Positions 2,985 to 27,018 of a DNA stretch of 27,145 nucleotides are shown here, piece by piece. The position numbers were made by a program, and so were the translations under genes. The stretch comes from a virus. Taxonomy: Duplodnaviria > Caudoviricetes. The stretch spans positions 1 to 27,145 of IMG/VR virus record IMGVR_UViG_3300044620_000978. One strand, given 5' to 3'. Every line of letters begins with the position of its first letter. Positions within the stretch are counted from its first letter, which is position 1. The notes under the pieces were generated by a model. The model was not told the DNA's origin. It saw nothing but the letters and a program-made list of their open reading frames with translations, and searched no databases.

Positions 2985-3027
2985 ACTTTCATCACGCTAG
3001 TGATAGACCTACTAGACAAGGAACACA

Positions 3028-3132
3028 ATGACCATTGCTGAACTCATAGCAGAACTACAACAGCACGACCCTAGTGACAGAGTGGCATACGCTTATGTCA
3101 CTTACAAGAAGCGCAAGAAGAAGCGCACATAG
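3028..3132 (+). CDS. Small basic protein (34 aa, MTIAELIAELQQHDP...KKRKKKRT)
   Basis: Own promoter, conserved leader plus SD, and terminator. Confidence 0.7.
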   Translation: MTIAELIAELQQHDPSDRVAYAYVTYKKRKKKRT

Positions 3133-3160
3133 CCTACGGGTAGCCTACGGGTACATAGAT

Positions 3161-3195
3161 AGAGGGGGAGTAGCAATGCTCCCTCTTTTTCTTTT
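3161..3195 (+). terminator. Intrinsic terminator
   Basis: AGAGGGGGAG...CTCCCTCT hairpin followed by a T tract. Confidence 0.7.
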
Positions 3196-3204
3196 CCTAA
3201 TGAC

Positions 3205-3233
3205 TTGACAGTGATACACCCATAGTGTAATAT
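3205..3233 (+). promoter_or_regulatory. Box promoter TTGACA-g-TGATACACCC-N6-TAATAT
   Basis: ATG 7 nt after the -10 (leaderless). Confidence 0.8.
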
Positions 3234-3240
3234 CTAATAC

Positions 3241-3483
3241 ATGAAGGAAACATACCTACATAGCGACATGACACTACGGGAAACAATCGCCCACCTAGTC
3301 GCAACAGAACGAGAAGCACGAAGCAGGTTTCGTTGGGGGTCACCATGTCGCCTCATCCGCACAATAGACATCCTCGTACACATCGTGCTACCTGAACTCA
3401 TAGAGGACATAGCACCACAGGTGACTAGATACCTCAGAAGCACAAGCCCACGATGGGGCAGGTCATGGAGAGAGTGGGACTAA
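3241..3483 (+). CDS. Hypothetical protein, leaderless
   Basis: 80-aa ORF starting at the predicted +1. Confidence 0.65.
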   Translation: MKETYLHSDMTLRETIAHLVATEREARSRFRWGSPCRLIRTIDILVHIVLPELIEDIAPQVTRYLRSTSPRWGRSWREWD

Positions 3484-3698
3484 CCCACCCGCCACTTGCG
3501 GGCGTTGTACGCATGAATAACAATGTACGCAACAGCACCAAAAATAAACCCATACTGCCTAGTCACTAGCGCATACCCAATCCAAAGGCACTCATTCAGA
3601 GCAGTGATTCCCCACGCCCACCAATACCTGCGCCCAACCAGCAGAAGCCCCGTCACACCAATACATGACAGCACCCACGACCAGAGTTGCTCACTCAT
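3480..3698 (-). CDS. PnuC-like (nicotinamide riboside transporter-like) membrane protein
   Basis: Three hydrophobic helices with WSWVLS..GLLLVGRR.WWAW..NE.LW pattern typical of phage PnuC-like proteins. Confidence 0.7.
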   Translation of the reverse strand: MSEQLWSWVLSCIGVTGLLLVGRRYWWAWGITALNECLWIGYALVTRQYGFIFGAVAYIVIHAYNARKWRVG

Positions 3699-3774
3699 CA
3701 CGAGTAAACGACAACAGAATGATTAGCCCTGCCATCAGAGGGATAGCAAAGTACAGACGGACAAGCCAAATCAT
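3691..3774 (-). CDS. Small membrane protein (27 aa, MIWLVRLYFAIPLMAGLIILLSFTRDE)
   Basis: ATGA-coupled to the MazG stop and overlapping the next start. Confidence 0.6.
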   Translation of the reverse strand: MIWLVRLYFAIPLMAGLIILLSFTRDE

Positions 3775-4118
3775 CGGGTATCGCCGTCACCGCCAATGAC
3801 CCCACGGGTATCACGGTCACCAAGTTTATCCAAGTTCATCACAGCCACATCGGAGAGGTCAGTCTCAAGTTCGGTAGCGACCATAGCCACATACCAAAGC
3901 ACATCACCCAACTCAGCCAGTAGCACAGCCTTTCGCTCAGGGGAGATAACGCCACCCTCGTCACGGATAGCCTTCTTCAGTTTCCCAGCAACCTCGCCAG
4001 CCTCAGAAGCCATACCGAGGACTGTGTAGACAAGTCCTGACTCCTTCGGGTACTTAGCAGTCGTGGAGGCAAACATTTGGTAATCGTCAATATTCATGGG
4101 CGTTACCCTATCACTCAC
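3771..4118 (-). CDS. mazG: MazG-like nucleotide pyrophosphohydrolase
   Basis: LGMASEAGEVAGKLKK...ELGDVLWYVA...NLDKL motifs. Confidence 0.9.
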   Translation of the reverse strand: MSDRVTPMNIDDYQMFASTTAKYPKESGLVYTVLGMASEAGEVAGKLKKAIRDEGGVISPERKAVLLAELGDVLWYVAMVATELETDLSDVAVMNLDKLGDRDTRGVIGGDGDTR

Positions 4119-4365
4119 TCACCCACTGCCATGACCCATCCTGATTCAGAATCATGTACTGAGGAGCGACACACTTAGTCACATCCACGGGTGCATCAGA
4201 CTCCCAGCGAGCAGGTGAAGCGGAGACGATACGGATATCGCATAGTGGGGTGTCGTCACCGAAGTGACTGACGAATCCGAGAAGTAGACCTAGTGCTAAG
4301 CCTCCCCACACGGTTGTGCGAACGAGGCTACGGATGGTGTAGTAGATAGGGGCGTGTTTCTTCAT
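4111..4365 (-). CDS. Membrane-anchored hypothetical protein, leaderless (MKKHAPIY...)
   Basis: Start reassigned to ATG 4365, just downstream of the promoter; one TM segment. Confidence 0.7.
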   Translation of the reverse strand: MKKHAPIYYTIRSLVRTTVWGGLALGLLLGFVSHFGDDTPLCDIRIVSASPARWESDAPVDVTKCVAPQYMILNQDGSWQWVSE

Positions 4366-4372
4366 GTGGATA

Positions 4373-4401
4373 AGTATTACACACGGGTGTATCCATGTCA
4401 A
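4373..4401 (-). promoter_or_regulatory. Box promoter TTGACA-t-GGATACACCC...TAATACT
   Basis: Variant box at 4385-4394. Confidence 0.7.
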
Positions 4402-4404
4402 GGA

Positions 4405-5025
4405 TTATCGGTAATTGACCTCAAAGCCCAAGTCATTCAGCCCCTTAGCCAACAACTCACGAAGCAGTTCGCCGTTGTAGCCCATCTCCTCATGGTCAAT
4501 CTCAATAGACAACGCACGATGCAGAGACAACGGGTATCTCCCATCACGGAGGACAGTCGCCCCCTTATGTTGCAACGGGTCAGAGTAAAGCACCTTACGG
4601 GGAGGCTCATACTTGTATGGAACCACCACAAACAGCAACTCCTCTTCCTCCACATGGGTGAAGGCAAGACACTCACGCACAAAGTCGCAAGACGGGGAAG
4701 CAAACAACTGAGCCATGTCATTCCCCCGACTCTCCTCAGGATTCGTGGAACAGAAGCCCTCAGCAACCATCGTGAAAGCAGTCGCATCCCAACCTTGACG
4801 GAGGATGCAAGCCGCCTGAACCATCAGCCCATACCGCTCATCATGGTCAGCCATCAGAAGCCCCGACAACTGAGCAACAGCAACCAGTTCGTCGTCGCAC
4901 CAAGCCATCAGGCTGAACGACAAATCCTCACCGATTCCCTCTTGTTGGACGATGAGCGACTTTGCTATTTTAGAACTCTCGACAGCGAGTGCAACCTTGT
5001 CAAGTGTTTCGGGGTAGAAATCCAT
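4405..5025 (-). CDS. Hypothetical protein (MDFYPETLDK...)
   Basis: The N-terminal extension in the ORF track is the antisense shadow of the histone-like gene; ATG 5025 preferred. Confidence 0.75.
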   Translation of the reverse strand: MDFYPETLDKVALAVESSKIAKSLIVQQEGIGEDLSFSLMAWCDDELVAVAQLSGLLMADHDERYGLMVQAACILRQGWDATAFTMVAEGFCSTNPEESRGNDMAQLFASPSCDFVRECLAFTHVEEEELLFVVVPYKYEPPRKVLYSDPLQHKGATVLRDGRYPLSLHRALSIEIDHEEMGYNGELLRELLAKGLNDLGFEVNYR

Positions 5026-5100
5026 GAAACTGTACGCTACTAGAGAAATAACTGCTGATAGTGTAGAAATCTCAAGAAACATCGGACTAAGGTGAGACTC

Positions 5101-5457
5101 ATGGCAACAAAAAAACAACCAGCAAAGAAAACAGCAGCGAAGAAGCAGGTCGCAAAAAAGACAACTGCTAAGAAGTCTGCGCCCAAGAAGAAGGCTGCGC
5201 CGAAGAAGAAGCCAGCAACCAAGGGTGAAACAACCAAGAAGTTGAAGACAAGTCCCGACACCAGCGCAACACTTGTTGATGCAGTGGTAGAGGCAGTCAT
5301 CACAACTCCTGAAATCCAAGAGAAGATTGAGTTCGTTGAGGACAAGATTGAAGAAGCCAAGGACATCGCTGAAGAAGTTTCATCACTCATTCGCATGAAC
5401 GATGTGAAAACCGCACGCATCCGCAAGAAGATGCTCGCTTGGTTCCGCAAGAAATAG
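5101..5457 (+). CDS. Histone H1-like Lys/Ala-rich DNA-binding protein
   Basis: PAKK/TAAKK/APKKK repeats; TAAGGT -10 lies 7 nt upstream of the ATG (leaderless). Confidence 0.8.
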   Translation: MATKKQPAKKTAAKKQVAKKTTAKKSAPKKKAAPKKKPATKGETTKKLKTSPDTSATLVDAVVEAVITTPEIQEKIEFVEDKIEEAKDIAEEVSSLIRMNDVKTARIRKKMLAWFRKK

Positions 5458-5467
5458 CGGAGTTGTT

Positions 5468-6274
5468 CTAGAAGTCTGCGTGAGACTCTAGAAAATCAAT
5501 CAGTTTAGATGGTGTGGTGTCGCCAGCGATACCCGCATCGGAACGCAACCAGCGAAGAAAGTCGTACCAACGGCGTTGCTGTTCAGGCGAATCAAACACA
5601 AGTGAGTACTGAACGACCGCTTTGGACGAACCGCTCATCCCACCAGATGTAGACCCCTGAGTCACGAGTGATTTCGTGTCAGAGTCTTTCGGAGCCTCAA
5701 GACGAACCTCGCCCTCGGAGTCCCGCGTTGTAATAGGAGCAGAGTTTGACTGCGAAGGAAGCGATGGCGGACGCACGGGTGCTTCGTCATCCAGGAGTTG
5801 AATGATTGGCTGCTCGTAAACTCCAGGTGTTGCAAGTGCGCTTGTTTCAGTGGACAAATCGAGCATTGCTAACTCAAACTCGTCCCATTGCAACTCTTCC
5901 AGCAGGTCGCCGTAGTCATCAATGATTGTTCCGAGTGCGTCAGCAAGCAGTGAGTCATCAGTGTGACCCAACTCGTTTGTGCGGTTATCAGCGATTGCGA
6001 AAGCCATTGCACGGGCATCATCAACATCCATTGGAACAACAGCGATGTGTGACCAACCAAGTCGTTGAGCCGCTTGGAACTGGTGGTTTCCTGCAATAAC
6101 AGTCATTGTCCCATCATCGTTCGGGCGAACAACGATTGGTTTAACTTGTCCAAACTCGTCGTAGGAGGCGCAGATGGCATCAATGTTGCCGATACGGGGA
6201 TTGCCGACCAGAGTGCGAAGACTATCTAGCGGGGCTGCTAGATGCTCAATGGATGAATGGATTTTGTGACTCAT
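5468..6274 (-). CDS. ParB/Srx N-terminal domain protein
   Basis: NPR.G...FGQVKPIVV...VIAGNHQFQAA..LGW...IADNRT motifs. Confidence 0.85.
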   Translation of the reverse strand: MSHKIHSSIEHLAAPLDSLRTLVGNPRIGNIDAICASYDEFGQVKPIVVRPNDDGTMTVIAGNHQFQAAQRLGWSHIAVVPMDVDDARAMAFAIADNRTNELGHTDDSLLADALGTIIDDYGDLLEELQWDEFELAMLDLSTETSALATPGVYEQPIIQLLDDEAPVRPPSLPSQSNSAPITTRDSEGEVRLEAPKDSDTKSLVTQGSTSGGMSGSSKAVVQYSLVFDSPEQQRRWYDFLRWLRSDAGIAGDTTPSKLIDFLESHADF

Positions 6275-6624
6275 TAGTGGTGTCCAATCTGGGTTCTGAC
6301 ATTCGCATTCAGTGTGCGGAGTGCATCAATGGATGTACGCAAAGAGATTAGTTTCTCTCGCTTTGCTTTCACGAGTGCTTCTGAAATTTTGTAGTCATAC
6401 GACTCATCTGATAGTTTGTAGTCAGCCCATGCTTCTCGCTCACGGATAGACCCCTTAGCAGATAGGTACTCCTTAGCCCAGTTTGACTTGTACAAGGCTT
6501 CCTTCTTGGCTGAGTCCTCTGCGAGTTGCTCAAACGCTTCAGTGTGTTCTTCTAACAGTTCCATCAGTCGCATAATCTCTGATTCGACTTCCACCTGTGA
6601 GATGGGTGCATTTCTTTTATTCAC
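6274..6624 (-). CDS. Coiled-coil hypothetical protein (possibly recombination-mediator-like)
   Basis: GTG start, coupled operon, helical heptads; function is inference. Confidence 0.75.
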   Translation of the reverse strand: MNKRNAPISQVEVESEIMRLMELLEEHTEAFEQLAEDSAKKEALYKSNWAKEYLSAKGSIREREAWADYKLSDESYDYKISEALVKAKREKLISLRTSIDALRTLNANVRTQIGHH

Positions 6625-6626
6625 GG

Positions 6627-7139
6627 CTATCTTTCTAGCGCAGACCAGTCCACTTTGTCAAGTGCTGTGATTTGTTCTTTTGTCCATGTGAACTCAGTAA
6701 AACCAAGTTTAGTAAGAGCCATCTGCTCCAAAACCCAAGCGTCACATTCATCATTCCCGCCAGCACCAGCAAAGATGCGTCCAGTCTTGGCGGAGATTGC
6801 AGAAATAACTTCACCTTTTGATGCGTTTCCTCGGCCCGTCGCAAACTTAGCGCGTGAAGTTGGCGGGACTTCTACGAACGGGATACCCATGTCAAACAGC
6901 AGCACACGAACAACTCCTCCGAGTTCACCGATGCTGTGAGCCTGAGAGTTTCTGGACCCAAACGAGTAACCTTCGATGACCGCATGGGTAACTTGACAAT
7001 CCAAAAAGATTTCAGTAAACTGACTTCGTAAATCAGCAAGCCGTTCCACGCCCTTCTTTTTAGAAGAAACGACACGGGTAGAACCAGCAACAGACACACC
7101 TGAAGATGTTAGGGACAAATCAAGCCCAACGAGTTTCAT
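6627..7139 (-). CDS. ruvC: RuvC-like Holliday junction resolvase
   Basis: VGLDLSLTSSG, VIEGY, GELGG, KFATGRGNASK, NDECDA motifs. Confidence 0.9.
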   Translation of the reverse strand: MKLVGLDLSLTSSGVSVAGSTRVVSSKKKGVERLADLRSQFTEIFLDCQVTHAVIEGYSFGSRNSQAHSIGELGGVVRVLLFDMGIPFVEVPPTSRAKFATGRGNASKGEVISAISAKTGRIFAGAGGNDECDAWVLEQMALTKLGFTEFTWTKEQITALDKVDWSALER

Positions 7140-7441
7140 TATTCGTCCCATGCGTGCTTGGCTAAACCTAAATCAAACGCAAGTTGCGGGTAGTTCCCGA
7201 TACGGCGATGACAGTCTCGGCATACACACATAAGATTGTCCTCATCTAAGATAGACCCTCCCTGTGAACGACGCACAAGTTCGTGGACATCGACAGAGAG
7301 ATTACGCACATAGGTTATAAGACCATCGTGCTCAGCAAAAATTAGGCAAGCCTCGCAATAGGGGCGTTGAGCCAGAAGACGAGCGACAAGCGGACGACGA
7401 AGTTTGTACTCCGCATCCTTCTTCTTAGAGCGATGCTTCAT
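7139..7441 (-). CDS. HNH endonuclease
   Basis: CEAC...DVHE...GG....NLMCVCRDCH. Confidence 0.85.
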   Translation of the reverse strand: MKHRSKKKDAEYKLRRPLVARLLAQRPYCEACLIFAEHDGLITYVRNLSVDVHELVRRSQGGSILDEDNLMCVCRDCHRRIGNYPQLAFDLGLAKHAWDE

Positions 7442-7800
7442 CCGCCTCGTTCAGCGCGGGGCTTCTTCTTGTCGTGAATCCACTTCTCGCCGCACTGCAA
7501 GCAGGTTGTAGCCCACGGGTAGAAACGCTTCATGTTTGATGGATGCGGGCAGTCAAGAACATCTTTGACAGCAAGGTTTACTGCATCTCGAATAAACTCA
7601 GCCATAGAAATGCCACGCTTCTCGGCGGCTGCTTTCCAACGCATGTGGTCCAACTCTGTTGCACGCAAAAGTACCTGCTTACCAGCAGTTTCTCCCTCGG
7701 ATGCACCAGTCTTTGGCTTGCGGGTAGGACGAATGCTTTTCGCAACATCGTCCATTGCCATCTCCAAGTTGTCTTCTTCTACGAAATCTTCGTCATTCAT
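7438..7800 (-). CDS. Ribbon-helix-helix DNA-binding protein with C-terminal Zn ribbon
   Basis: QVLLR....RWKAAAEKRGISMAEFIRDAV plus CPH...CLQCG. Confidence 0.75.
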   Translation of the reverse strand: MNDEDFVEEDNLEMAMDDVAKSIRPTRKPKTGASEGETAGKQVLLRATELDHMRWKAAAEKRGISMAEFIRDAVNLAVKDVLDCPHPSNMKRFYPWATTCLQCGEKWIHDKKKPRAERGG

Positions 7801-8428
7801 CTGGTTCTACCACCTCTGCGTCTACGATGTCTGACTCTACCCCAGTTTTGTCCAGTTGCGGCGCAGTCCCGAGAAGTTGATTGATTGTTGCTGGCGGCAG
7901 CACACCAGAGTTGCCCATGATTTCCAGCAACTTCTTGACTTCTTCTTCTGGATTAAACGCATTAGCAGCGATTGCTTTATTGTTTGAGCCAGCCAATGTT
8001 GCACGAATCGGCTCATCAGCGCCAGCAACATCCATCTGAACATTGATGTTGGTCTGCTCCATACCCAGCAACTTGGAGCGCCTGTCCATGATTGACAATG
8101 CGGTTTGCACAGCCTTCATGTCAGGTTCCACAGTTACCTCAGTCCCATCGTCCATCCGCACTTTACGATGCTGCGTCAGAGGCCAAATTGATTGCTGAAG
8201 CGCATCAAGGCGTTCGAGTTCCATGCGAAGAACTTCTGGATACGCCATCAATGCTTCTGAGTTCATACGCTGCAGTTGGCGACGCACGGCGGTTCCAACA
8301 GCGGCGGTTGTCATCCCGAAACGACGGGCGATTTCATTGTTCGGGACTCCCGCCTGTCGCATCTTAAAGATACGCAGGTCTCGGTCAGCGAGGAACTCTC
8401 GCGTTAGCCCTTGGTTTGAGTTGCTCAT
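7793..8428 (-). CDS. HTH DNA-binding protein (possible terminase small subunit-like)
   Basis: N-terminal HTH (GVPNNEIARRFGMT) plus ELERLD...IMDRRSKLLG motif. Confidence 0.75.
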   Translation of the reverse strand: MSNSNQGLTREFLADRDLRIFKMRQAGVPNNEIARRFGMTTAAVGTAVRRQLQRMNSEALMAYPEVLRMELERLDALQQSIWPLTQHRKVRMDDGTEVTVEPDMKAVQTALSIMDRRSKLLGMEQTNINVQMDVAGADEPIRATLAGSNNKAIAANAFNPEEEVKKLLEIMGNSGVLPPATINQLLGTAPQLDKTGVESDIVDAEVVEPDE

Positions 8429-10203: not shown

Positions 10204-10886
10204 GGGCAGACCTTACCGAACTCCACCCATGCTTTCCAAGTTTCTGGCATTTGTTCAGCGAACAACTTTTCTACTGCGTCTGCGAACTCACGAATTTCAC
10301 GCTGTGCGTTCGGGTCGGTGCGTAAAGCGAGAAAGTTCATCAAAGACCGTGCGTTTACTGTCCAATAAAACTGTGTGTACATAGAGACAGGAAGAACCAT
10401 GCGTGCAACTTCCTTCGCTACACCTGACTGAACAAGATGTGCGTATGTTTCATATGCTTTTTCATTAACTGAAGCAATCATCTCGACTGTGCTTTTTGCC
10501 AATGTTTCATTAACAGGCTCAAATGTGTATGCCCCTGGCTTGCCAACCTGAGTGCGGATTGCTGACTCGTCTGGGGTGAAGAATTCATTCGGGACTTCTG
10601 AGTACCGTGCAGAGAACTCATTAAAAGAACCGATGCGATGACGGAACCATTCTCGTGCAACAAACACTGGACACTTGACATGAAAACGAAACGCGTTATG
10701 CTCAAACGGAGTTCCATGATGTTCACGCATTAAAAACTTAATAAGCCCTTTGTCTGCGCCAGTTAATTCGTTGTGAAGTTCGCTTTGTTTTGCAAAACTT
10801 ACTCGTGCGGAATTAATAACTGATGCGTCGTCAGCCATTGATGCGTCCAGACGGACAAAGCCATCGCTAATATTCAGTTGGCTCAT
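10200..10886 (-). CDS. thyX: FAD-dependent thymidylate synthase
   Basis: HGTPFEH, REWFRHR..SFNEFSARY, NARSLMNFL.LR, AQREIR. Confidence 0.97.
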   Translation of the reverse strand: MSQLNISDGFVRLDASMADDASVINSARVSFAKQSELHNELTGADKGLIKFLMREHHGTPFEHNAFRFHVKCPVFVAREWFRHRIGSFNEFSARYSEVPNEFFTPDESAIRTQVGKPGAYTFEPVNETLAKSTVEMIASVNEKAYETYAHLVQSGVAKEVARMVLPVSMYTQFYWTVNARSLMNFLALRTDPNAQREIREFADAVEKLFAEQMPETWKAWVEFGKVCP

Positions 10887-11206
10887 ACGGAGTCCCGTTC
10901 TTTGTCTAATCGGCGTGATACACGCCTTGTTGAGTTGCTAATAGATGAAAGTGCTTCGGCAGTTAAATGAATGTTTCTGCGTCGGCGTTCGAGTTCTCTT
11001 TCGGATTCTCGTAATCCGCCCCATATTCCATGAGTTTCATTCGGCAATGAATACATCAAACACGCATTCCGAACTTCGCATTGGTTGCAAATCTTTACTG
11101 CGGTTCGTCCGTTTCTGATTGCTGTAACGCTTTTGTCTGGATACCACCAATCTGTGGGGTAGTCCCGACACGCACCTTTTTCAGCATCAAAAGTAATCTC
11201 TGGCAT
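10883..11206 (-). CDS. whiB: WhiB-family Fe-S transcription factor
   Basis: C-X21-CxxC-X5-C with GIWGGL turn and basic C-terminus. Confidence 0.93.
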   Translation of the reverse strand: MPEITFDAEKGACRDYPTDWWYPDKSVTAIRNGRTAVKICNQCEVRNACLMYSLPNETHGIWGGLRESERELERRRRNIHLTAEALSSISNSTRRVSRRLDKERDSV

Positions 11207-11978: not shown

Positions 11979-12011
11979 GTTTAGTAGTCCTCCTTGTGAA
12001 CTGTTGAGATA

Positions 12012-12509: not shown

Positions 12510-12545
12510 GTTCTACATAACCTACTAGACAAAAGGAGTTAAAAA

Positions 12546-12692
12546 ATGGAACAACATGAGTGTGCCCGAGACGGCGACCCACATCTGTCCTGCGCTGGCG
12601 AAACTGTCATGCGTGCGGTTGAGTTCCCTGCGCCACCAGCACCGTACTGCGAATCGCATTGGGACGACATTTTGCGCAGTCTTTACCGATAA
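12546..12692 (+). CDS. Small Cys/His protein (48 aa, MEQHECARDGDPHLSC...YCESHW)
   Basis: Own promoter, SD and terminator; absent from the ORF track. Confidence 0.75.
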   Translation: MEQHECARDGDPHLSCAGETVMRAVEFPAPPAPYCESHWDDILRSLYR

Positions 12693-13198: not shown

Positions 13199-13288
13199 GT
13201 TATCCGTTGGGCTTCCCGAATGTCCATCGGTGGTTAAACGAAGCGAGTAGCGCCAACGGTGTGAAAGAAGCCGAACCCATCGGATAGC
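13199..13288 (+). ncRNA. Putative 90-nt structured RNA
   Basis: Begins at the predicted +1; 5' GTTATCCGTTGGG pairs with 3' CCCATCGGATAGC; no credible ORF. Confidence 0.55.
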
Positions 13289-13296
13289 CCCCCAAT

Positions 13297-13325: not shown

Positions 13326-13365
13326 TTATCCATAACTACTAGACACACCCGAGGAGGTGAACTAA

Positions 13366-14064
13366 ATGAATACACGAGTAATGTTCGCAGGAGACATTCA
13401 CGGCAACCTTGACCATGCAGAATGGCTGTTCGGTCATGGCGTGGAGAATGATGTAGATGTCATCATCGCTTGTGGAGACTTCGGCTTCTGGCCTCACTAC
13501 GGCTGGGGCAAGACATACCTCAACGGCATTGAGCGTCTCGCACGAAAGTCAAACATCAAGTTGTACTGGATTGACGGCAATCACGAGAACCACGACATCA
13601 TTGACGAGTTGGTTGCTGAGAATGGCTCAGAAAACCTTATCCCTATTGGTAGCGAGTGGATTCAGTACATCCCACGAGGCTGTCGCTTCACTCTCGGTTC
13701 CAAGACAATCATGGGATACGGCGGTGCGTACAGTTGGGACTGGAAGCATCGTGAACTCGGACTCTCCTATTGGAAGCAAGAACTCATCAACGAATACAAG
13801 ATTGACGAGATTGCAGAAGAGAAGGTAGATATCCTTGTAACTCACGAAGCACCCTTCGGCAAGGAAATCTCCTACAAGGACGAAATCCCCATCTCTGTCC
13901 GTCAGCGTGAACTTGTCTTGGAAATCCAGAACAAGGTCAATCCCGACCTTCATGTGTGCGGTCACCACCACACACGGGAGAACTGGCAATCAGGAATTAC
14001 TGATGTTCATGTTCTTGGTCGTGATGACATGGCTGATGAGTCCGTGCTTATTATGGATATCTAA
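13366..14064 (+). CDS. Calcineurin-like metallophosphoesterase
   Basis: GDIHG, CGDFG, DGNHEN, VTHEAP, CGHHH motifs. Confidence 0.92.
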   Translation: MNTRVMFAGDIHGNLDHAEWLFGHGVENDVDVIIACGDFGFWPHYGWGKTYLNGIERLARKSNIKLYWIDGNHENHDIIDELVAENGSENLIPIGSEWIQYIPRGCRFTLGSKTIMGYGGAYSWDWKHRELGLSYWKQELINEYKIDEIAEEKVDILVTHEAPFGKEISYKDEIPISVRQRELVLEIQNKVNPDLHVCGHHHTRENWQSGITDVHVLGRDDMADESVLIMDI

Positions 14065-15065: not shown

Positions 15066-15429
15066 GGGAAAAAACTTCTCGTCGGTAATCCGACATCGCA
15101 GAAGTCCCGAGCACTTTACGCCAGATGTTTTCGTCAAAGATGTTGTGTCTACCCAGTAGATAATCCTCAACTTCGTACTTTTCCATCAGGATTTCTATGT
15201 CCCAGCCCATCTTGGTGCTGATGTAATTCATGAGGGAGATAGATACTTCGTCTTCTCCATGCTTTTCGTAAAGTTTGTCCAACAATCGAGATACTTCTTT
15301 GTTCACTCGCTTCTCTCTTCTGTCGGCTTCTATAAAGAACTGGCTGACCAGGTACGAAACAGTTTGTTCTGTGTCGGGTAGGTCAAGTGGGAACAGTTCG
15401 TCGTCGTCTTCGTCTTCGTAGTCGTACAT
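14977..15429 (-). CDS. Hypothetical protein (MYDYEDED...)
   Basis: Start reassigned downstream of the terminator; GAGG SD. Confidence 0.75.
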   Translation of the reverse strand: MYDYEDEDDDELFPLDLPDTEQTVSYLVSQFFIEADRREKRVNKEVSRLLDKLYEKHGEDEVSISLMNYISTKMGWDIEILMEKYEVEDYLLGRHNIFDENIWRKVLGTSAMSDYRREVFSLSQTYLTRAVREVLEREQPNTSPKVDPLL

Positions 15430-18174: not shown

Positions 18175-18250
18175 TGGTGGGTCACCTGGGATTCGAACCC
18201 AGAACCTGCGGATTAAAAGTCCGTTACTCTAACCATTGAGTTAGTGACCC
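18175..18250 (-). tRNA. tRNA-Lys(UUU)
   Basis: GGGTCAC acceptor, D arm, anticodon loop CT-TTT-AA, GGTTCGAATCC T arm, encoded CCA. Confidence 0.95.
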
Positions 18251-18541: not shown

Positions 18542-18573
18542 TTTCTATTTTCCTTTTTCTAGTAGGTAATTAC

Positions 18574-20790: not shown

Positions 20791-20794
20791 GGAA

Positions 20795-21914: not shown

Positions 21915-21918
21915 CATG

Positions 21919-21946
21919 AAAAAACCCCGCCATTTCTGACGGGGTT
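21919..21946 (-). terminator. Intrinsic terminator
   Basis: AAAAAACCCCGCCA...TGACGGGGTT; near-identical twin at 22884. Confidence 0.75.
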
Positions 21947-21956
21947 CGTTCGGTTG

Positions 21957-22283
21957 TTATTGCCAGCAACTAGCGGTGTAAACCGTGTCGCTTATCTGTT
22001 CGCAATAGACATCGGTTGCTTCGTACTCCACGATGTCATCGCCTCGCCGTTCACCTCTCACGATATGACGGTAACGCCGTACTGTGTAGGTATCCATGAA
22101 GGACAGGGTGACCTCTACCGTGCGGTTGGTGCTACTTGGAAGTGAGATACCGATTACCTCGCCCTCACTATCTCGGATAGCACTCCACTTTCCGCCAGAC
22201 ACTGCACAGACGGTCATAAAACCTATCTGGCTAAGTATTTCCCTAGCGTCACAGTAGCGACCCTCTCGGATGCGCATACTCAT
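21957..22283 (-). CDS. Hypothetical protein
   Basis: Box promoter, CTACTAAAC leader, GAAAGGG SD. Confidence 0.8.
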   Translation of the reverse strand: MSMRIREGRYCDAREILSQIGFMTVCAVSGGKWSAIRDSEGEVIGISLPSSTNRTVEVTLSFMDTYTVRRYRHIVRGERRGDDIVEYEATDVYCEQISDTVYTASCWQ

Positions 22284-22312
22284 ATTTTCCCTTTCGTTTA
22301 GTAGATACGGAC

Positions 22313-22382
22313 ATAATACCTCATGGGTGTATCAGGGTAAAAATTGGTTAGGTTTATCCGTGATACACCTATCTGGCATAAT
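22313..22382. promoter_or_regulatory. Divergent pair of box promoters (minus TGATACACCC-N6-TATTAT; plus TGATACACCT-N6-CATAAT)
   Basis: Boxes at 22325-22334 (-) and 22361-22370 (+). Confidence 0.8.
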
Positions 22383-22432
22383 GGTTGTATCGCACGATTC
22401 CCGTGTGGTTGCTTACTAGAAAAAGGAAAAGC

Positions 22433-22651
22433 ATGACCGTTATCCAGAACCAAGTTCTCACTGTCGGGTTCGGCAAAGAGATTCAGATAGTTGTCACCGA
22501 CAAGGGCAACGACACACTGAACGCTATCGTTACCTTCGGCGCAAAGGTAAAGCGCAAAACCTTCCGAGGCGAAACGGCTCACCACTCAGCACAGCGTTGG
22601 GTGAACGACCTCACTCTCCCCGTCATTCACGGAGCGAAGGACAGCATTTAG
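22433..22651 (+). CDS. Hypothetical protein (MTVIQNQ...)
   Basis: TTACTAGAAAAAGGA leader. Confidence 0.75.
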   Translation: MTVIQNQVLTVGFGKEIQIVVTDKGNDTLNAIVTFGAKVKRKTFRGETAHHSAQRWVNDLTLPVIHGAKDSI

Positions 22652-22673
22652 TCCTCGCCACAAAAACCGAAAC

Positions 22674-22701
22674 AGCCCCTGCCGAAAGGTGGGGGTTTTT
22701 T
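22674..22701 (+). terminator. Intrinsic terminator
   Basis: AGCCCCTGCC-GAAA-GGTGGGGGTT-TTTT. Confidence 0.8.
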
Positions 22702-22738
22702 CATGTCTCAACTCAGCGAAGAAGCCCCGCACTGAATA

Positions 22739-22752
22739 CGAACAAATGTTCG
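22739..22752. promoter_or_regulatory. LexA (SOS) box CGAACAAATGTTCG
   Basis: Perfect consensus overlapping the -35 region of extended -10 TGtTATGCT (22770-22778). Confidence 0.8.
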
Positions 22753-22784
22753 CCTCGGGACTGTTGCCGTGTTATGCTTTTCAT

Positions 22785-22843
22785 TGGGGTGCATCGGGGT
22801 GTTTCCTTCCTTTCTACCCGATGCGCCCCACCTTTCTTTTGTT
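22785..22843 (+). ncRNA. Putative SOS-regulated hairpin sRNA with anti-SD loop
   Basis: 14-bp stem TGGGGTGCATCGGG/CCCGATGCGCCCCA, loop GTGTTTCCTTCCTTTCTA, T-rich tail; starts at the predicted +1. Confidence 0.55.
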
Positions 22844-22858
22844 AAATCCAACAACAAG

Positions 22859-22878
22859 TGACGGTGGCGTATAGCGGG
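22859..22878 (+). repeat. 20-bp dispersed repeat, copy 2
   Basis: TGACGGTGGCGTATAGCGGG. Confidence 0.85.
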
Positions 22879-22883
22879 CATAG

Positions 22884-22909
22884 AAAAACCCCGCCATCGC
22901 TGACGGGGT
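22884..22909 (-). terminator. Intrinsic terminator
   Basis: AAAAACCCCGCCA...TGACGGGGT. Confidence 0.75.
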
Positions 22910-22924
22910 AATTCGTTAGTTTTG

Positions 22925-23116
22925 TTAGAGAACTTCTCGTATCTGAACTTCATGGAAGTACTTGCGGAAAGTTTCTGCCTTTCCTTCTGCTTGACGCTTA
23001 CCGTGAACTCCGTCAAAGATAATCCACTCTGTCGGGTGAAGTGCGAAGTCTCCCCTGAAGATAGGGTCATTATGGTCTAGCGGTAAATGGGCTAGGACTA
23101 TGTACTTTGGGTGCAT
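22925..23116 (-). CDS. Hypothetical protein (63 aa, MHPKYIVL...)
   Basis: CCTACTAGAAAGGAA leader fixes the start at 23116. Confidence 0.75.
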   Translation of the reverse strand: MHPKYIVLAHLPLDHNDPIFRGDFALHPTEWIIFDGVHGKRQAEGKAETFRKYFHEVQIREVL

Positions 23117-23144
23117 AGTGTTCCTTTCTAGTAGGTATGGCATA

Positions 23145-23216
23145 AGTGTACCAAAGGGGTATGTCATAGATAGGTTTATCTAAAGACTTGACATTGACGC
23201 ACCCTTCTGTCATAAT
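23145..23216. promoter_or_regulatory. Divergent pair of box promoters (minus TGACATACCC-N6-TACACT; plus TTGACA-t-TGACGCACCC-N6-CATAAT)
   Basis: Boxes at 23157-23166 (-) and 23195-23204 (+). Confidence 0.8.
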
Positions 23217-23222
23217 GACTCC

Positions 23223-23435
23223 ATGAATTACTTACGCCTAGAAAGAGTCATAGCGCACTTAGAGCGTTATTCTTCGGGTAGCACCTACTACAAAGGTCTA
23301 CTCCGTCAGTACCAATTGCTAGGACGACTCTCTGAGAAACAAATAGCAAGCGTGGAAAGAGCAATGGCGCAGGACGAACAAATGGCGCAGGCGCAGGCAC
23401 GGCGTGAAATTCGTGAATGGAATTCCACCCACTAA
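23223..23435 (+). CDS. Hypothetical protein, leaderless (GRLSEKQ motif)
   Basis: ATG 6 nt after the -10. Confidence 0.75.
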   Translation: MNYLRLERVIAHLERYSSGSTYYKGLLRQYQLLGRLSEKQIASVERAMAQDEQMAQAQARREIREWNSTH

Positions 23436-23438
23436 CCC

Positions 23439-23460
23439 CGACACACCCCTGCGATATAAT
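23439..23460 (+). promoter_or_regulatory. Box promoter CGACACACCC-N6-TATAAT
   Basis: Leader CCTACTAGACAAAGGA at 23470. Confidence 0.8.
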
Positions 23461-23492
23461 AATCGCATACCTACTAGACAAAGGAAAAAATA

Positions 23493-23603
23493 ATGCTTGC
23501 TGATGTAGTAATCACAACTTGGTTCATTGAGGTCTCACTCCTCGTTGTTCTGAGCATCACACTCGGATTCACACTCGGACTAATGGCAACACTGCGAAAG
23601 TAG
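23493..23603 (+). CDS. Small single-pass membrane protein (36 aa)
   Basis: Promoter, leader and terminator; hydrophobic. Confidence 0.7.
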   Translation: MLADVVITTWFIEVSLLVVLSITLGFTLGLMATLRK

Positions 23604-23617
23604 TCCAAGCCAAAGAT

Positions 23618-23651
23618 GCCCCCAGCCAGAAATGGTTGGGGGTTTTTCTTT
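23618..23651 (+). terminator. Intrinsic terminator
   Basis: GCCCCCAGCCA-GAAA-TGGTTGGGGGT-TTTTCTTT. Confidence 0.8.
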
Positions 23652-23668
23652 ACCCCTAAAAGCCCCGC

Positions 23669-23866
23669 CTAGTCAAATAGCCCGACATCGTTGCGGGACT
23701 CTCCGCCTGTTTCTAAACAAATCTTGTGTGCATAGCCGAGCGGGGCTGATGCTTTCGTGATTGTTGTTGTTTGTTTGCCGTTCTTGACGACTGCCCATGC
23801 GATTACTTTGTGGGCTCTTGCTTGCCCTTGACCTATTTCGTTGTCGCATATTTCGCAGATAATCAT
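23669..23866 (-). CDS. Small Zn-binding protein (CEIC...HKIC)
   Basis: 65-aa ORF; TAAACT -10 just upstream. Confidence 0.65.
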   Translation of the reverse strand: MIICEICDNEIGQGQARAHKVIAWAVVKNGKQTTTITKASAPLGYAHKICLETGGESRNDVGLFD

Positions 23867-23916
23867 GACAACAGTTTATCGGGTGAGTATTTTTCACGCA
23901 ACGCTGTGGATAACCT

Positions 23917-23938
23917 TGATACACCCTGCTGTCAAACT
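23917..23938 (+). promoter_or_regulatory. Box promoter TGATACACCC-N6-CAAACT
   Basis: Leaderless ATG at 23945. Confidence 0.7.
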
Positions 23939-23944
23939 ACACAC

Positions 23945-24022
23945 ATGACATTTACATACATTGTTGCAATTATCGGATTACCTATCTACACCCTTTATCA
24001 GTTATGGAATTACAAACCATAA
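23945..24022 (+). CDS. Small membrane peptide (25 aa, MTFTYIVAIIGLPIYTLYQLWNYKP)
   Basis: Starts at the predicted +1. Confidence 0.6.
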   Translation: MTFTYIVAIIGLPIYTLYQLWNYKP

Positions 24023-24030
24023 CCGCCGAC

Positions 24031-24059
24031 TTGACCTTGATACACCCCTAGTGTAATAT
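24031..24059 (+). promoter_or_regulatory. Box promoter TTGACC-t-TGATACACCC-N6-TAATAT
   Basis: Leader CCTACTAAAC...AAGGA. Confidence 0.8.
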
Positions 24060-24093
24060 CTACTACATACCTACTAAACCAAAAGGAACAGCG

Positions 24094-24567
24094 ATGAAAG
24101 TTTTACTCCGCAACCACATTTACACACAAGCCCACAAAAAGAAATTGTCCGTCCCCGCTATTGAGGAAATTGCTCATCAGCGTTCGCAAGTGTTCTACAT
24201 TCGTGAGAACAAACTCGGCAAGTGCGACTCATGCGGAACAGCAAAGGAAGGCTGGAACGGCATCGGAACCATTGACGGAGTGCGCTACGCAATAGAGATG
24301 GTTGTCTGTCCTACTTGCGGAGATGCACGAACTGTCTACATGATGAACAATGCAGGTTGCACACCTATCCGTCAAGACCAATGGAATGACGGTCAGCGTC
24401 GTTTCACACGGCAGTGTGGCGACTGTGGCAAGTCGTTCACCATCACTGCACAGACTTGGGAGAAGTTGTCTGAACAGACAATGCACAAGTGCAAGAACGG
24501 CAAGCGAGTAGACCTCATTGCTGACGAACACCGAGACATGAAGGGCAAGTATTTCCCGAAAGGGTGA
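24094..24567 (+). CDS. Multi-zinc-ribbon hypothetical protein
   Basis: CDSC, CPTC, CGDC, HKC. Confidence 0.8.
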   Translation: MKVLLRNHIYTQAHKKKLSVPAIEEIAHQRSQVFYIRENKLGKCDSCGTAKEGWNGIGTIDGVRYAIEMVVCPTCGDARTVYMMNNAGCTPIRQDQWNDGQRRFTRQCGDCGKSFTITAQTWEKLSEQTMHKCKNGKRVDLIADEHRDMKGKYFPKG

Positions 24568-24586
24568 TACACCCCCATGTCATACT
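24565..24586 (+). promoter_or_regulatory. Box promoter TGATACACCC-N6-CATACT
   Basis: The TGA of the box is the upstream stop codon. Confidence 0.75.
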
Positions 24587-24615
24587 GATTACATCGCCTA
24601 CTAGAAAGAAATAAA

Positions 24616-24789
24616 ATGAGAAACACTCCCGACAGAATGGACATAGCGAACGCACTCAGCAAAGTCCGCAATGAAAGCAACCACTCCGAGTGGGTTACGG
24701 CTTGCGTGGCTATGGCTAACTTGCTCACACATGATGACGCAACGAAGCAAGCGTTCCTAACTATTTGTGGACTTGACACACCCCTCTGA
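24616..24789 (+). CDS. Small hypothetical protein (57 aa, MRNTPDRMDIA...)
   Basis: CCTACTAGAAAG leader. Confidence 0.7.
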   Translation: MRNTPDRMDIANALSKVRNESNHSEWVTACVAMANLLTHDDATKQAFLTICGLDTPL

Positions 24790-24795
24790 TAAACT
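24774..24795 (+). promoter_or_regulatory. Box promoter TGACACACCC-N6-TAAACT
   Basis: Embedded in the last codons of the upstream ORF. Confidence 0.75.
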
Positions 24796-24828
24796 TATCT
24801 ACATCACCTACTAGAAAGAGAAACTGAC

Positions 24829-24993
24829 ATGGCTAAGAAGCGTCACAACATAAAGGCAGGGCACAAGCAACGCCCACTCACACCTGAGCAATTGCGTGAA
24901 GCAATGGAAGCGAAGTTGCGAGCGCAAACAATTCCTGACCGTCGCAAGGTCAAGGACAAGAGAGAGTGTCGTGACTTCCGTTGGCAAGGCTGA
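24829..24993 (+). CDS. Small basic protein (54 aa, MAKKRHNIKAG...)
   Basis: CCTACTAGAAAGAG leader. Confidence 0.7.
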   Translation: MAKKRHNIKAGHKQRPLTPEQLREAMEAKLRAQTIPDRRKVKDKRECRDFRWQG

Positions 24994-25026
24994 CGGGAGA
25001 CACTTCCATATCCACGAAAGGACAGC

Positions 25027-25245
25027 ATGAGGCTGACATACAACTACACAAAAGATGATTACGCACTTCACCCTGAGGAACACACCGACAAAGTTGTTTC
25101 CGTTGTGAAAGAGATAAACGACTACACAGAGACATACGACATTACGCACTGGACATTTGATGATGTCCTTGCGTTTGAGGCACTTGCGAGTGCAGACCGT
25201 GTTGGGCTGATGGAAGGCTTGACGCAAGTTGGGAGCGCACAATGA
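25027..25245 (+). CDS. Hypothetical protein
   Basis: GAAAGGA SD. Confidence 0.7.
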   Translation: MRLTYNYTKDDYALHPEEHTDKVVSVVKEINDYTETYDITHWTFDDVLAFEALASADRVGLMEGLTQVGSAQ

Positions 25246-25517
25246 GCAAGGGAGACCGCATTAGGCTTGTCCACACCTCAGACCCGCACACAAGACTTGT
25301 AGCGGGCGACATGGGGACTGTGAGGCTCATTGACGGCATGGGCACTGTCCATGTCAAATGGGATAAAGGCTCATCGCTTGGGCTTGTACCAGATGAGGAC
25401 AGTTGGGAAATCATTGACCAATGGGACATTGACAACGGCTGTACGCATGACTGGAACTTTATTGACGGCAATGAGAGCGTGATGAAGTGCGCTGAGTGCG
25501 GGAACTATCAGTACTAA
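25242..25517 (+). CDS. DUF4314-like protein with C-terminal Zn ribbon
   Basis: GDRIRLVH.SDP...GDMGTV..IDGMGTVHVKWDKGSSLGLVP.ED. Confidence 0.85.
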   Translation: MSKGDRIRLVHTSDPHTRLVAGDMGTVRLIDGMGTVHVKWDKGSSLGLVPDEDSWEIIDQWDIDNGCTHDWNFIDGNESVMKCAECGNYQY

Positions 25518-25520
25518 CCC

Positions 25521-25542
25521 TGATACACCCGCCTGCCATAAT
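25521..25542 (+). promoter_or_regulatory. Box promoter TGATACACCC-N6-CATAAT
   Basis: Leader CCTACTAGACAAAGGA at 25553. Confidence 0.8.
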
Positions 25543-25572
25543 AGATACATCACCTACTAGACAAAGGAAACC

Positions 25573-25821
25573 ATGAAGGGCTTAGATAACTTTCTCACGA
25601 AGGCATCGTATGATTACGATTACTTCACCCCCGTCACACGGGAGTCATTCTCTGAGTCGGTTGAGGGTATGAACATTCCTATCCTCATTGACGAAGTGCA
25701 ATGCGCTAACTGTGAGGCTGGAATTGGTTGGTCATCAGACGGAACTTTCACCGACTTTTGGACAAACCAAACTGAAACTCAATACATTTGCGACGACTGT
25801 TGCGAAGACGACTGGAAATAA
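25573..25821 (+). CDS. Small zinc-finger protein (CANC...CDDC)
   Basis: Promoter, leader and terminator. Confidence 0.75.
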   Translation: MKGLDNFLTKASYDYDYFTPVTRESFSESVEGMNIPILIDEVQCANCEAGIGWSSDGTFTDFWTNQTETQYICDDCCEDDWK

Positions 25822-25824
25822 CGG

Positions 25825-25857
25825 AAGGACTCCAACTCGCAAGGGTTGGAGTTTCTT
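25825..25857 (+). terminator. Intrinsic terminator
   Basis: GACTCCAACTC-GCAA-GGGTTGGAGTT-TCTT. Confidence 0.7.
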
Positions 25858-25981
25858 AGTAGTCCCGCCGCAGCCCAGATGCTAAGCAGACACAGAAGCC
25901 CCGCCGCCCATTTGTACGGGAATTGGGGCGGGACGCACGAGCGCACGCACGCAGAGGTGCATGAGGGTTGCACGAAACAAC

Positions 25982-26001
25982 TGACGGTGGCGGATAGCGG
26001 G
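25982..26001 (+). repeat. 20-bp dispersed repeat, copy 3
   Basis: TGACGGTGGCGGATAGCGGG. Confidence 0.85.
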
Positions 26002-26058
26002 GAAAATAGTTGCGAGCGCAATCAGTTGGTGAGTTTATTTCATTCACCAAATCAACTC

Positions 26059-26196
26059 TGATACACCCTTCTGGCATAATGTTGGAACACGGCGCAGTTC
26101 AGATAAACTAAACCGTGATACACCCCTCTGATAGAGTGGTAGTTATCAAGGCGAGGGACACCAACCCGAAACCCTGATACACCCACCTAGTAAGAT
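26059..26196 (+). promoter_or_regulatory. Three tandem box promoters (boxes 26059, 26116, 26175; -10 CATAAT, TAGAGT, TAAGAT)
   Basis: Exact TGATACACCC x3, each 6 nt from a -10. Confidence 0.8.
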
Positions 26197-26225
26197 GAGT
26201 GTTACCTACTAAGCAAAGGAAAAAA

Positions 26226-26378
26226 ATGAACACAGTAATCGGCATCTACATCTCGGACGAAGTAAGCGAAATCGCTGGCGGAATTGTCATCTATGTAGTC
26301 CACCAAGACGGTGAGCGTGTACGCAATGTCATCGCTCCAGAAATGGTGAACGCATACAAGGTTCCAGTCCTCAACTAA
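26226..26378 (+). CDS. Small hypothetical protein (50 aa, MNTVIGIYISDEV...)
   Basis: CCTACTAAGCAAAGGA leader. Confidence 0.75.
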   Translation: MNTVIGIYISDEVSEIAGGIVIYVVHQDGERVRNVIAPEMVNAYKVPVLN

Positions 26379-26381
26379 CCC

Positions 26382-26492
26382 TGACACACCCCCTTGATAA
26401 AATGGGGGCAGTTGATAGGGAGTACCCGTAGAAGCACGAAGGAAGAACCAAGAGTGTGACGGGGAAACCTTGATACACCCCACCGATACACT
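26382..26492 (+). promoter_or_regulatory. Two tandem box promoters (26382, -10 TAAAAT; 26471, -10 TACACT)
   Basis: Box-N6-(-10) architecture. Confidence 0.8.
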
Positions 26493-26524
26493 GGTGGCAT
26501 ACCTACTAAGCAAAGGAAAAAACA

Positions 26525-26923
26525 ATGAATACAAAGACAGCAACCAAGGCATACCTTGAGGCTCGCAAGGCTCTGGAGATTGCAGAAGCAATCAAGAAGC
26601 AAGCAGAAGCAGAGATGAAGAAAGCACTCGCTCAGGACGGCGTAGACTTCGCAATCGTGGACGGCGTGAAAGTCACAGTCGTACAGGGTGAGCGTCCTAA
26701 CTACAACGCTGAGACGCTCCGTGCGCTCGTTGATGAGGCAACCTTTGAGGCAGTCACCAAGACTGCTGTGGACGGCTCAAAGATGAAGTCGGCAGTCAAT
26801 GTCGGGATGGTCACCGCAGAGGTCGCAGAAGCGGTCACAACGGTCACCTACTACGACCAAGTGCGAGTCACAGAAGTCGCTAAGGCAGTCGCTGAGACAA
26901 CCGAAGCGGTCAAGGTCGCTTAG
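26525..26923 (+). CDS. Hypothetical protein
   Basis: 132 aa; CCTACTAAGCAAAGGA leader. Confidence 0.85.
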   Translation: MNTKTATKAYLEARKALEIAEAIKKQAEAEMKKALAQDGVDFAIVDGVKVTVVQGERPNYNAETLRALVDEATFEAVTKTAVDGSKMKSAVNVGMVTAEVAEAVTTVTYYDQVRVTEVAKAVAETTEAVKVA

Positions 26924-26961
26924 TGGGTCGGGGGGTAACTCCCCCCACTCGCCCACCAATG

Positions 26962-26990
26962 TTGGAAATGTATGACATACCCGTTATACT
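26962..26990 (+). promoter_or_regulatory. Promoter TTGGAA-N17-TATACT with shifted box TGACATACCC
   Basis: Box only 2 nt from the -10; leader CCTACTAGAAAG at 26998. Confidence 0.65.
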
Positions 26991-27018
26991 GAAATTACCT
27001 ACTAGAAAGAAGAACGCA

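Follow-up and report, generated by a model that had tools for sequence, protein, structure and literature searches.

What is a six-base sequence for when it recurs, in one orientation, ahead of many genes of the same phage? This question is raised by the virus record IMGVR_UViG_3300044620_000978, a linear record of 27,145 bases (18% complete according to CheckV), which was analysed over its whole length and is referred to below as the window. A prediction made from the sequence alone had described in it a leader element, CCTACTAR, fused to the Shine-Dalgarno (SD) sequence of about 16 genes and working as RNA. Our analyses establish that such a tag, with the core CTACTA, is present at gene starts, and on the evidence of sequence it behaves as a start-associated RNA element; the explanation that we tentatively prefer, while giving it somewhat less than an even chance, is that CUACUA is a ribosome-loading element which is masked by phage RNAs in some lineages. 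The comparisons draw on eleven related records that were fetched whole, in which genes were called with a simple self-trained caller, so that some starts are wrong, and on a marker set, selected independently of the motif, consisting of the best 78 of 212 relatives of a vWA-like marker protein collapsed to 46 distinct loci. G001, one of the two closest relatives (the other is G002), overlaps the window and is not independent of it.

In the window, CTACTAR has 18 matches on both strands, compared with a mean of 2.76 and a maximum of 8 in 100 shuffles. Fifteen exact copies and one variant stand at gene starts, in agreement with the number of genes originally proposed, and the other three exact matches (386, 5037, and 25856) lie outside leaders. 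Upstream of most tags is a promoter of host type in which a GAYACACCC box, six bases ahead of the −10 hexamer, lies inside the −35/−10 spacer; about 23 window promoters have this box (e.g., 3213, 12489, 13172, 23196, and 24039). Tags with a box promoter are found on the plus strand at 12522..12528 (17 nucleotides (nt) before the ATG at 12546; promoter 12489), 13336..13342 (23 nt before ATG 13366 of a metallophosphoesterase gene; promoter 13305), 23471..23477 (15 nt before ATG 23493; promoter 23440), 24071..24077 (16 nt before ATG 24094; promoter 24039), 24598..24604 (11 nt before ATG 24616; promoter 24566), 24808..24814 (14 nt before ATG 24829; promoter 24775), 25554..25560 (12 nt before ATG 25573; promoter 25522), 26206..26212 (13 nt before ATG 26226; promoter 26176), and 26503..26509 (15 nt before ATG 26525; promoter 26472), and on the minus strand at 18559..18565 (17 nt before ATG 18541; promoter 18594), 22298..22304 (14 nt before ATG 22283; promoter 22333), and 23128..23134 (11 nt before ATG 23116; promoter 23165). 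A further plus-strand copy at 26999..27005 lies 13 nt before ATG 27019, whose open reading frame runs off the window.

The spacing of these copies separates the promoter from the start codon as the point to which the tag is tied. At the 12 sites with a box promoter directly upstream, the motif starts 8–12 nt after the −10 hexamer, just after the predicted +1, and in all window copies that precede the SD the distance from the motif end to the ATG is 11–23 nt. In two long leaders, the −10 hexamer is 24 and 29 nt from the motif, which remains 12 and 13 nt from the ATG, in line with the earlier suggestion that in such leaders the motif stays with the SD and not with the promoter. The former is the leader of CTACTAG at 3009..3015 (+, ATG 3028), which has a plain promoter without a box (TTGACA 2956–2961, TAAGAT 2979–2984, spacing 17, +) and a 5-base-pair (bp) hairpin at 2991–3004 between the +1 and the tag; the latter carries the variant tag CTTACTAG at 22412..22419 (+, ATG 22433; box promoter 22362), and a hairpin at 22391–22407 (+) can be read in the sequence upstream of it. 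One copy, CTACTAA at 11981..11987 (−), does follow the SD, as originally noted, 2 nt before ATG 11978, and is placed alike in G001 and G002. The motif otherwise lies just before the SD, as described; to call it fused to the SD is too strong, since the register between the two varies.

The 23 box promoters scored in the window include 13 that feed a CTACTA leader and 3 that feed a leaderless ATG, the two destinations proposed for most of them; 2 others feed a leader with one mismatch, 2 a leader without the tag, and 3 have no gene within 75 nt. In the window and its two closest relatives (G000–G002), CTACTA is present behind 53 of 63 leadered box promoters and is lacking at all 14 promoters that have no gene in the next 75 nt. 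Upstream of tagged promoters, further box promoters that do not directly precede a gene stand in tandem at 26060, 26117, and 26383 (+); the first two, upstream of 26176, have no exact tag of their own, and 26383, upstream of 26472, has no tag. Genes predicted to be leaderless behind box promoters are located at 3241, 23223, and 23945 (+) and at 4366 (−), and the first codons of some leaderless genes hold tag-like words (viz. ACTAGAC in the homologues of 23223 in G001 and G002).

Across 45 of the marker loci, 202 of the 274 sense CTACTA hits between −80 and +40 begin at −30 to −11, a range in which none of the 30 hits to the antisense hexamer falls. This count, the G000–G002 promoter count, and the permutation count given below are the less circular of our tests; those of promoter distance, hairpin gap, and SD register required an SD and an ATG downstream of each site, and their 3′ distances are bounded for this reason. 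Within these bounds, 32 of the 97 sites with a promoter call lie 15–92 nt from the −10 hexamer, and 24 of these 32 stay 9–16 nt from the ATG; at 12 of the 15 sites that lie at least 27 nt from the ATG, an intervening hairpin brings the distance down to 23 nt or less. The comparison of distances to the transcription and translation starts, which had been proposed as a check, thus shows the motif following the start codon. The tag has a predicted mean unpaired probability of 0.72, placing it, as in a standby site, in a single strand upstream of the SD; G makes up 2.7% of positions −5 to +5, and hairpins are tolerated on either side. The tag overlaps the SD template in 11 of 132 sites, and its interpretation as a contiguous extension of the SD that pairs with a longer 16S tail was rejected, as 26 of the 132 sites have the required register and the others range from −4 to +22. 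A reading of the tag as a stop codon (TAA/TAG) was likewise rejected, position 7 being C in 31%. The strand specificity of the motif, its tracking of the start codon, its absence at the 14 gene-less promoters, and its retention in relatives agree with the original proposal that it works as RNA. Tagged leaders are clustered in one genome region, and the tagged genes are likely early, as judged from their host-type promoters, their small size, and this common location.

The tag is not peculiar to the window. In nine distant records, CTACTA is the third most enriched hexamer upstream of starts, behind two SD words (97 occurrences vs. 10.5 expected), and in the 46 marker loci it precedes 200 SD-led starts, ranking first among its 90 permutations (median 10.5), with at least three copies in 28 of the loci. 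It recurs in lineages of 44–65% GC and 36–100% marker identity, and it persists in G010 and G012, whose promoters are without the ACACCC box; the promoter box of relatives reads TTACACCC or CTACACCC. The family consensus is (C/T)A(A/C)CTACTA(A/G/C), with shorter forms such as AAACCTAAAC in some lineages, so that of the CCTACTAR first described the CTACTA core stands and the restriction of position 7 to a purine does not. The flanks of the tag are lineage-specific and the core is unchanged. Conservation in the leaders of related phages, on which the prediction had been staked, was found: exact CTACTA is kept in 11 of 11 and 9 of 10 homologous leaders of the two closest relatives (20 of 21). Among metagenome contigs, all loci with at least two promoter-plus-tag cassettes had protein matches to the family of the window; unrelated phages with a tag-like leader have 1–5 copies per record, which indicates that multi-copy use of the tag is family-specific. 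A single match to the full promoter-tag-SD cassette, in a Clostridiaceae contig, was obtained from 185,579 species genomes, and hence the cassette, searched in its full form, is not a chromosomal feature. No tagged leader was found in a 50-kb stretch of phage DSL-LC01.

Three classes of predicted complementary hairpin RNA are distinguished by sequence in the wider marker set. In the first class, which is widespread, the loop is complementary to the SD: CCTTTC occurs in non-coding hairpin loops more often than any other hexamer (22 of 49 sequences), and 33 of the 46 marker loci have an anti-SD hexamer within 150 nt after the vWA stop codon. A conserved hairpin with such a loop is seen 3′ of the vWA gene at 37173 in G001, 33918 in G008, 95680 in G007, and in most of L417–L494, its loop being CCCCUUU in lineages whose leaders often use AAAGGGG. 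The window itself contains a predicted stand-alone small RNA at 22785..22845 (+), with a 14-bp stem, an 18-nt loop GUGUUUCCUUCCUUUCUA, and a U-rich tail, whose loop is the complement of UAGAAAGGAA (the last three tag bases plus the SD) and whose hairpin at 22785–22830 has a folding energy of −29.5 kcal/mol (z −7.1). An extended −10-like TG-n-TATGCT can be read by eye at 22770–22778, where a sigma-70 scan lists no promoter, and a LexA-box-like palindrome, CGAAC-N4-GTTCG, at 22739..22752 upstream is kept in G001 and G002; in G002 the stem sequence of the RNA is replaced and the loop is kept. Tagged leaders pair with this hairpin at −10.2 kcal/mol and untagged SD leaders at −9.7, almost equally, and the window RNA is hence best described as anti-SD, not anti-tag. 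An intergenic element, TGACGGTGGCG (reverse CGCCACCGTCA), is repeated at about 20770, 22855, and 25978 (+) in the window and in many relatives, often near predicted RNAs and the replication-initiator-like gene.

The second class is a hairpin that follows the last gene of an early operon at a distance of about 25 nt; its loop GGUAGUAG is fixed in 6 of 6 aligned sequences, five of which come from close kin, and 4 of 12 stem pairs are changed on both sides. The third, found in a sister clade, is a two-hairpin RNA of about 110 nt, syntenic and divergent from the replication-initiator-like gene, with a promoter-like sequence, an anti-SD loop 1, a loop 2 GUAGGUGG that mirrors the tag, and a U-rich end. 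It is located at 15281–15392 (−) in L439, 14823–14933 (−) in L440, and 13357–13467 (−) in L449, and occurs also in L452, L465, L469, L473, L477, L480, L481, L485, L487, and L489; a model built from 7 of the sequences found 5 more at 44–52 bits, and its loop is present in 15 of 45 marker loci. Its shape is given by single-sequence folds and a 7-sequence alignment (34 pairs, 11 with two-sided change), and 13 of 14 aligned copies retain GTAGGTGG while their stems diverge. GUAGGUG is complementary to CACCUAC, the 5′ part of the tag, the order of the two loops is antiparallel to a leader that reads tag and then SD, and in 6 of 6 loci the loop pairs better with tagged than with untagged leaders. In G007, the vWA gene is followed by an anti-SD hairpin and then by a hairpin with the loop UCUAGUAG. 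Rfam matched only the tRNA in the window and gave no credible match in 6 loci that hold the two-hairpin RNA. The search for complementary phage RNAs that had been suggested as a check thus yielded a complementary predicted RNA, only in lineages other than that of the window. A first synteny search over 12 genomes found no shared antisense site. Several other candidates were discarded: an RNA gene downstream of the terminase (7 of 7 genomes have no gap there), and anti-tag sites at 25856 of the window (not kept in G001), at the ATPase stop of G001 and G002 (tandem stop codons), in a hairpin of G004 and G008 (Tyr-stop on the other strand), and at 35758 of G005 (not kept in G006).

In the explanation that we tentatively prefer, CUACUA, lying in a G-poor, predicted single-stranded stretch 9–23 nt before the start codon of likely early genes, would act as a loading site that aids initiation by the host ribosome, a role that its position and its G-poor, unpaired context would fit. 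Its reader would be a slowly changing host component, e.g., the 30S subunit or S1, because the core stays the same as promoter boxes, flanks, and genes change around it, and because the tag is present in genomes without a complementary RNA. Phage RNAs that mask the SD (widespread) or the SD plus the tag (in one clade and G007) would then serve to switch these genes off later, provided that the predicted RNAs are made and that their pairing represses. A/U-rich enhancers are described as acting together with the SD (PMC2176067), and SgrS is described as a small RNA that silences an S1-dependent enhancer on manY (10.1101/808485). A bolder proposal, which we regard as doubtful, is that the early genes constitute an RNA-addressed regulon, in which a barcode before the SD of every early mRNA and one two-loop RNA gripping both barcode and SD would turn off the whole set without a protein repressor.

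Several observations weigh against a ribosome-loading element. Fewer than three CTACTA copies are present in 18 of the 46 marker loci, and beyond G001 and G002 just 4 of 26 homologous leaders keep exact CTACTA, indicating that the tag is not bound to particular genes. The strictness of its conservation exceeds what A/U-rich enhancers, as described, require (PMC2176067); eight copies follow the SD, a position in which an upstream enhancer would not work; and the tag is absent from the leaders of capsid (0 of 8), portal (0 of 7), and SSB (0 of 11) genes, in which strong translation is needed, as it is from those of primase and terminase. The two-hairpin RNA was not found in G002, in the near-complete G004, G006, and G008 (97, 98, and 100%), at the syntenic site of G001, G003, G005, and G013, or in the window, its absence from the window (18% complete) and G001 (31%) being unproven. 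As it was found neither in the window and its closest relatives nor in three near-complete tag-bearing genomes, this RNA cannot be the sole reader of the tag.

Other explanations account for parts of this evidence. We consider it rather unlikely that an RNA-binding repressor encoded by the phage uses the tag as its operator, competing with the 30S subunit and so ending early translation in the manner of T4 RegA. Sequence specificity, restriction to one gene class, and the location of pre-SD, post-SD, and tandem tags all inside the ribosome footprint would suit such a protein, as would the retention of the post-SD copy in G000, G001, and G002, whereas only a small number of copies follow the SD (8, a count equalled by two other permutations; median 1), and the core is constant although drift of site and reader together would be expected if the reader came from the phage. 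Moreover, no RegA-like or other RNA-binding family was recognised among 103 shared proteins (Pfam) or 68 of them (PHROGs), most of which had no match of any kind, nor a RegA-family protein among 46 window proteins (PHROGs), the lineage-specific genes of relatives being outside the scan. That the tag is mainly an address for phage antisense RNAs acting on the whole early set, with such an RNA in every lineage, diverged or outside the fragments analysed here, appears quite unlikely, despite the two-loop RNA of the sister clade, the constant loop of the post-operon hairpin above its changing stem, and the paired hairpins of G007. UAGUAG is found in strong hairpin loops of 9 of 45 sequences (maximum 6 and median 2 in 40 permutations), and the loop agrees with position 7 of the tag in G007 (G) and in L489 and L469 (C). 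Against this, 2 of the 9 UAGUAG loops are Tyr-stop codons on the other strand, most copies of the two-hairpin RNA read UUGUAGG, which mismatches one tag base, and no more than 6 pairs were recovered when a consensus fold was computed automatically from the 14 aligned sequences. Tags in the best-pairing context are similarly frequent with the RNA (27 of 74) and without it (29 of 88), the loops show no preference for leaders of their own lineage, the window hairpin is not tag-specific, and the RNA was not found in the genomes named above.

It is improbable that the tag is functionless and rides along on promoter-leader cassettes copied and homogenised by recombination, as in the PeSLs of T4-like phages. 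Flanks that are lineage-specific and common to unrelated genes, including a whole hairpin in G007, and gene orders behind the cassettes that differ between close relatives are in keeping with such copying; however, the core stays in lineages that differ in flanks, promoter box, and spacing, the tandem upstream promoters of the same type lack the tag, and complementary loops exist in the sister clade. A DNA site just downstream of the +1, serving a phage repressor or promoter escape, is very improbable: 65 of the 97 sites do start 8–13 nt after the −10 hexamer, and the family encodes ribbon-helix-helix and helix-turn-helix proteins, but the gene-less promoters are untagged, distances to the −10 hexamer reach 92 nt, some copies follow the SD, and the motif is only 6–7 bp, asymmetric, and in one orientation. 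We attach as little credence to a cleavage or processing site for a sequence-specific ribonuclease, like GGAG for T4 RegB, for which the single-stranded context and the confinement to initiation regions of likely early genes would be suitable; CTACTA is not specifically avoided in coding sequence (observed/expected 0.69, against a median of 0.63 for the 94 hexamers with two TA, among which it ranks 59th), and Pfam and PHROGs recognised no such nuclease among the shared proteins.

The window is a fragment of a roughly 140-kb WhiB-encoding phage family; its genes include WhiB, primase, helicase, SSB, ThyX-type thymidylate synthase, RuvC, ParB, and tRNA-Lys, and related uncultured records reach 133–145 kb. 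Since the WhiB family is described as exclusive to Actinobacteria (PMC6282962), the WhiB gene at 10883..11206 (−) makes it likely that the family infects actinobacteria; protein searches with SSB and WhiB, and their cluster members, led to phage-like proteins. Megablast of bases 1–25000 found no cultured relatives, and all helicase and terminase matches were below 60% identity. The tRNA-Lys(UUU) gene is located at 18175–18250 (−). In the coding sequence of 8 related genomes, the words AGCT, GGCC, and GATCGA are strongly avoided, probably reflecting restriction-site avoidance and possibly providing a clue to the host. The GAYACACCC box contains GACAC/GATAC, resembling the WhiA motif; the WhiA/WhiB complex is described as placed at or upstream of −35 (PMC10243135). 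Promoters of a second type, in which (C)GTGCGTA(A/G)T occupies the −10 position, are seen at 69–99 kb of G007 and in the early regions of G004 and G008. Five CGAAC-N4-GTTCG palindromes (2655, 2700, 13125, 18935, and 22739), which match the actinobacterial LexA consensus (PMC9380542), are present in the window and others at promoters of G006, G007, and G012; their sequence suggests SOS control of some phage promoters. A T/G-rich low-complexity stretch at 2510–2740 holds a direct repeat ttttttaggtcatgctttt and two LexA-like boxes, and a structured non-coding stretch at 13200–13290 (+) behind box promoter 13172 is absent at the matching place in G001 and has no Rfam match.

Among known systems, the nearest to the tag are the start-associated sequences (SAS) of cluster K mycobacteriophages and cluster EF Microbacterium phages (PMC3203893, PMC7302621), an analogy that had been drawn in the original prediction for cluster K and that holds for behaviour and not for membership. 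As described, SAS are asymmetric, in one orientation, present in 10–20 copies, and shared by unrelated genes, all of which is alike here; the tag, too, keeps one orientation (202 sense vs. 0 antisense hits at −30..−11) and is found at starts of non-structural genes, in one region and with no copy before the capsid or portal genes. SAS, however, are described as a 13-bp consensus GGGATAGGAGCCC that contains the SD and lies 3–7 bp from the start codon, whereas the tag has an unrelated, G-free 6-nt core separate from the SD, at a variable distance from the start. About half of SAS reportedly have a 17-bp inverted repeat (ESAS) upstream, where by eye the element upstream of the tag is an asymmetric promoter box, and for the tag a complementary predicted RNA exists in a sister clade of its family. 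The cluster O repeat, as described, is palindromic and not linked to starts (PMC4351075), unlike the tag; a cluster EC repeat described as lying 22–30 bp upstream of start codons (PMC7302621) could bear on novelty. A literature search on the CTACTA motif found nothing relevant.

T4 RegA and RegB (PMC3014915) are described as acting after transcription on a set of phage mRNAs, whose initiation regions contain the unstructured sites that they read, a feature shared by the tag. RegA sites, in the same account, are rich in A+U, lack a clear consensus, and adjoin or overlap the AUG, as only the 8 post-SD tags do, and RegB cuts the SD itself, unlike a tag upstream of it. The PeSL cassettes of T4-like phages (PMC2839356, PMC4122927) combine, as here, a repeated sigma-70-type promoter and an SD before small variable genes; they are defined by a stem-loop at the promoter, with no conserved leader tag in the published descriptions consulted, and most cassettes here are without such a stem-loop, although inverted repeats, which were not scored, are seen at some promoters of relatives. 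The predicted RNAs may be likened to SgrS on manY (10.1101/808485) and to the anti-SD sequence in the 3′ untranslated region of icaR (PMC3868564), described as blocking initiation by pairing either with the SD or with an enhancer that precedes it. Those are described as single-target cases in Enterobacteria or Staphylococcus, dependent on Hfq or acting in cis, whereas here one predicted two-loop phage RNA faces a tag of many genes; of the features of an antisense regulon, a conserved structured RNA gene whose loops are complementary to shared sites is predicted in the sister clade only.

On sequence grounds, the tag is hence a variant of a known, unexplained start-associated kind, which works like the cluster K SAS and is not itself SAS. 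When SAS were described in 2011, the question was raised whether a host or phage protein or an RNA reads them (PMC3203893). The phages of the present family are uncultured; the family nevertheless offers a minimal short tag, natural variants with flanking hairpins, and a candidate partner RNA with defined pairing, by which this question becomes testable. An actinobacterial translation enhancer or a multi-target phage silencing RNA, if confirmed, would be a useful expression tool, and an RNA-addressed regulon, if true, would also explain the purpose of the start-associated sequences of actinophages.

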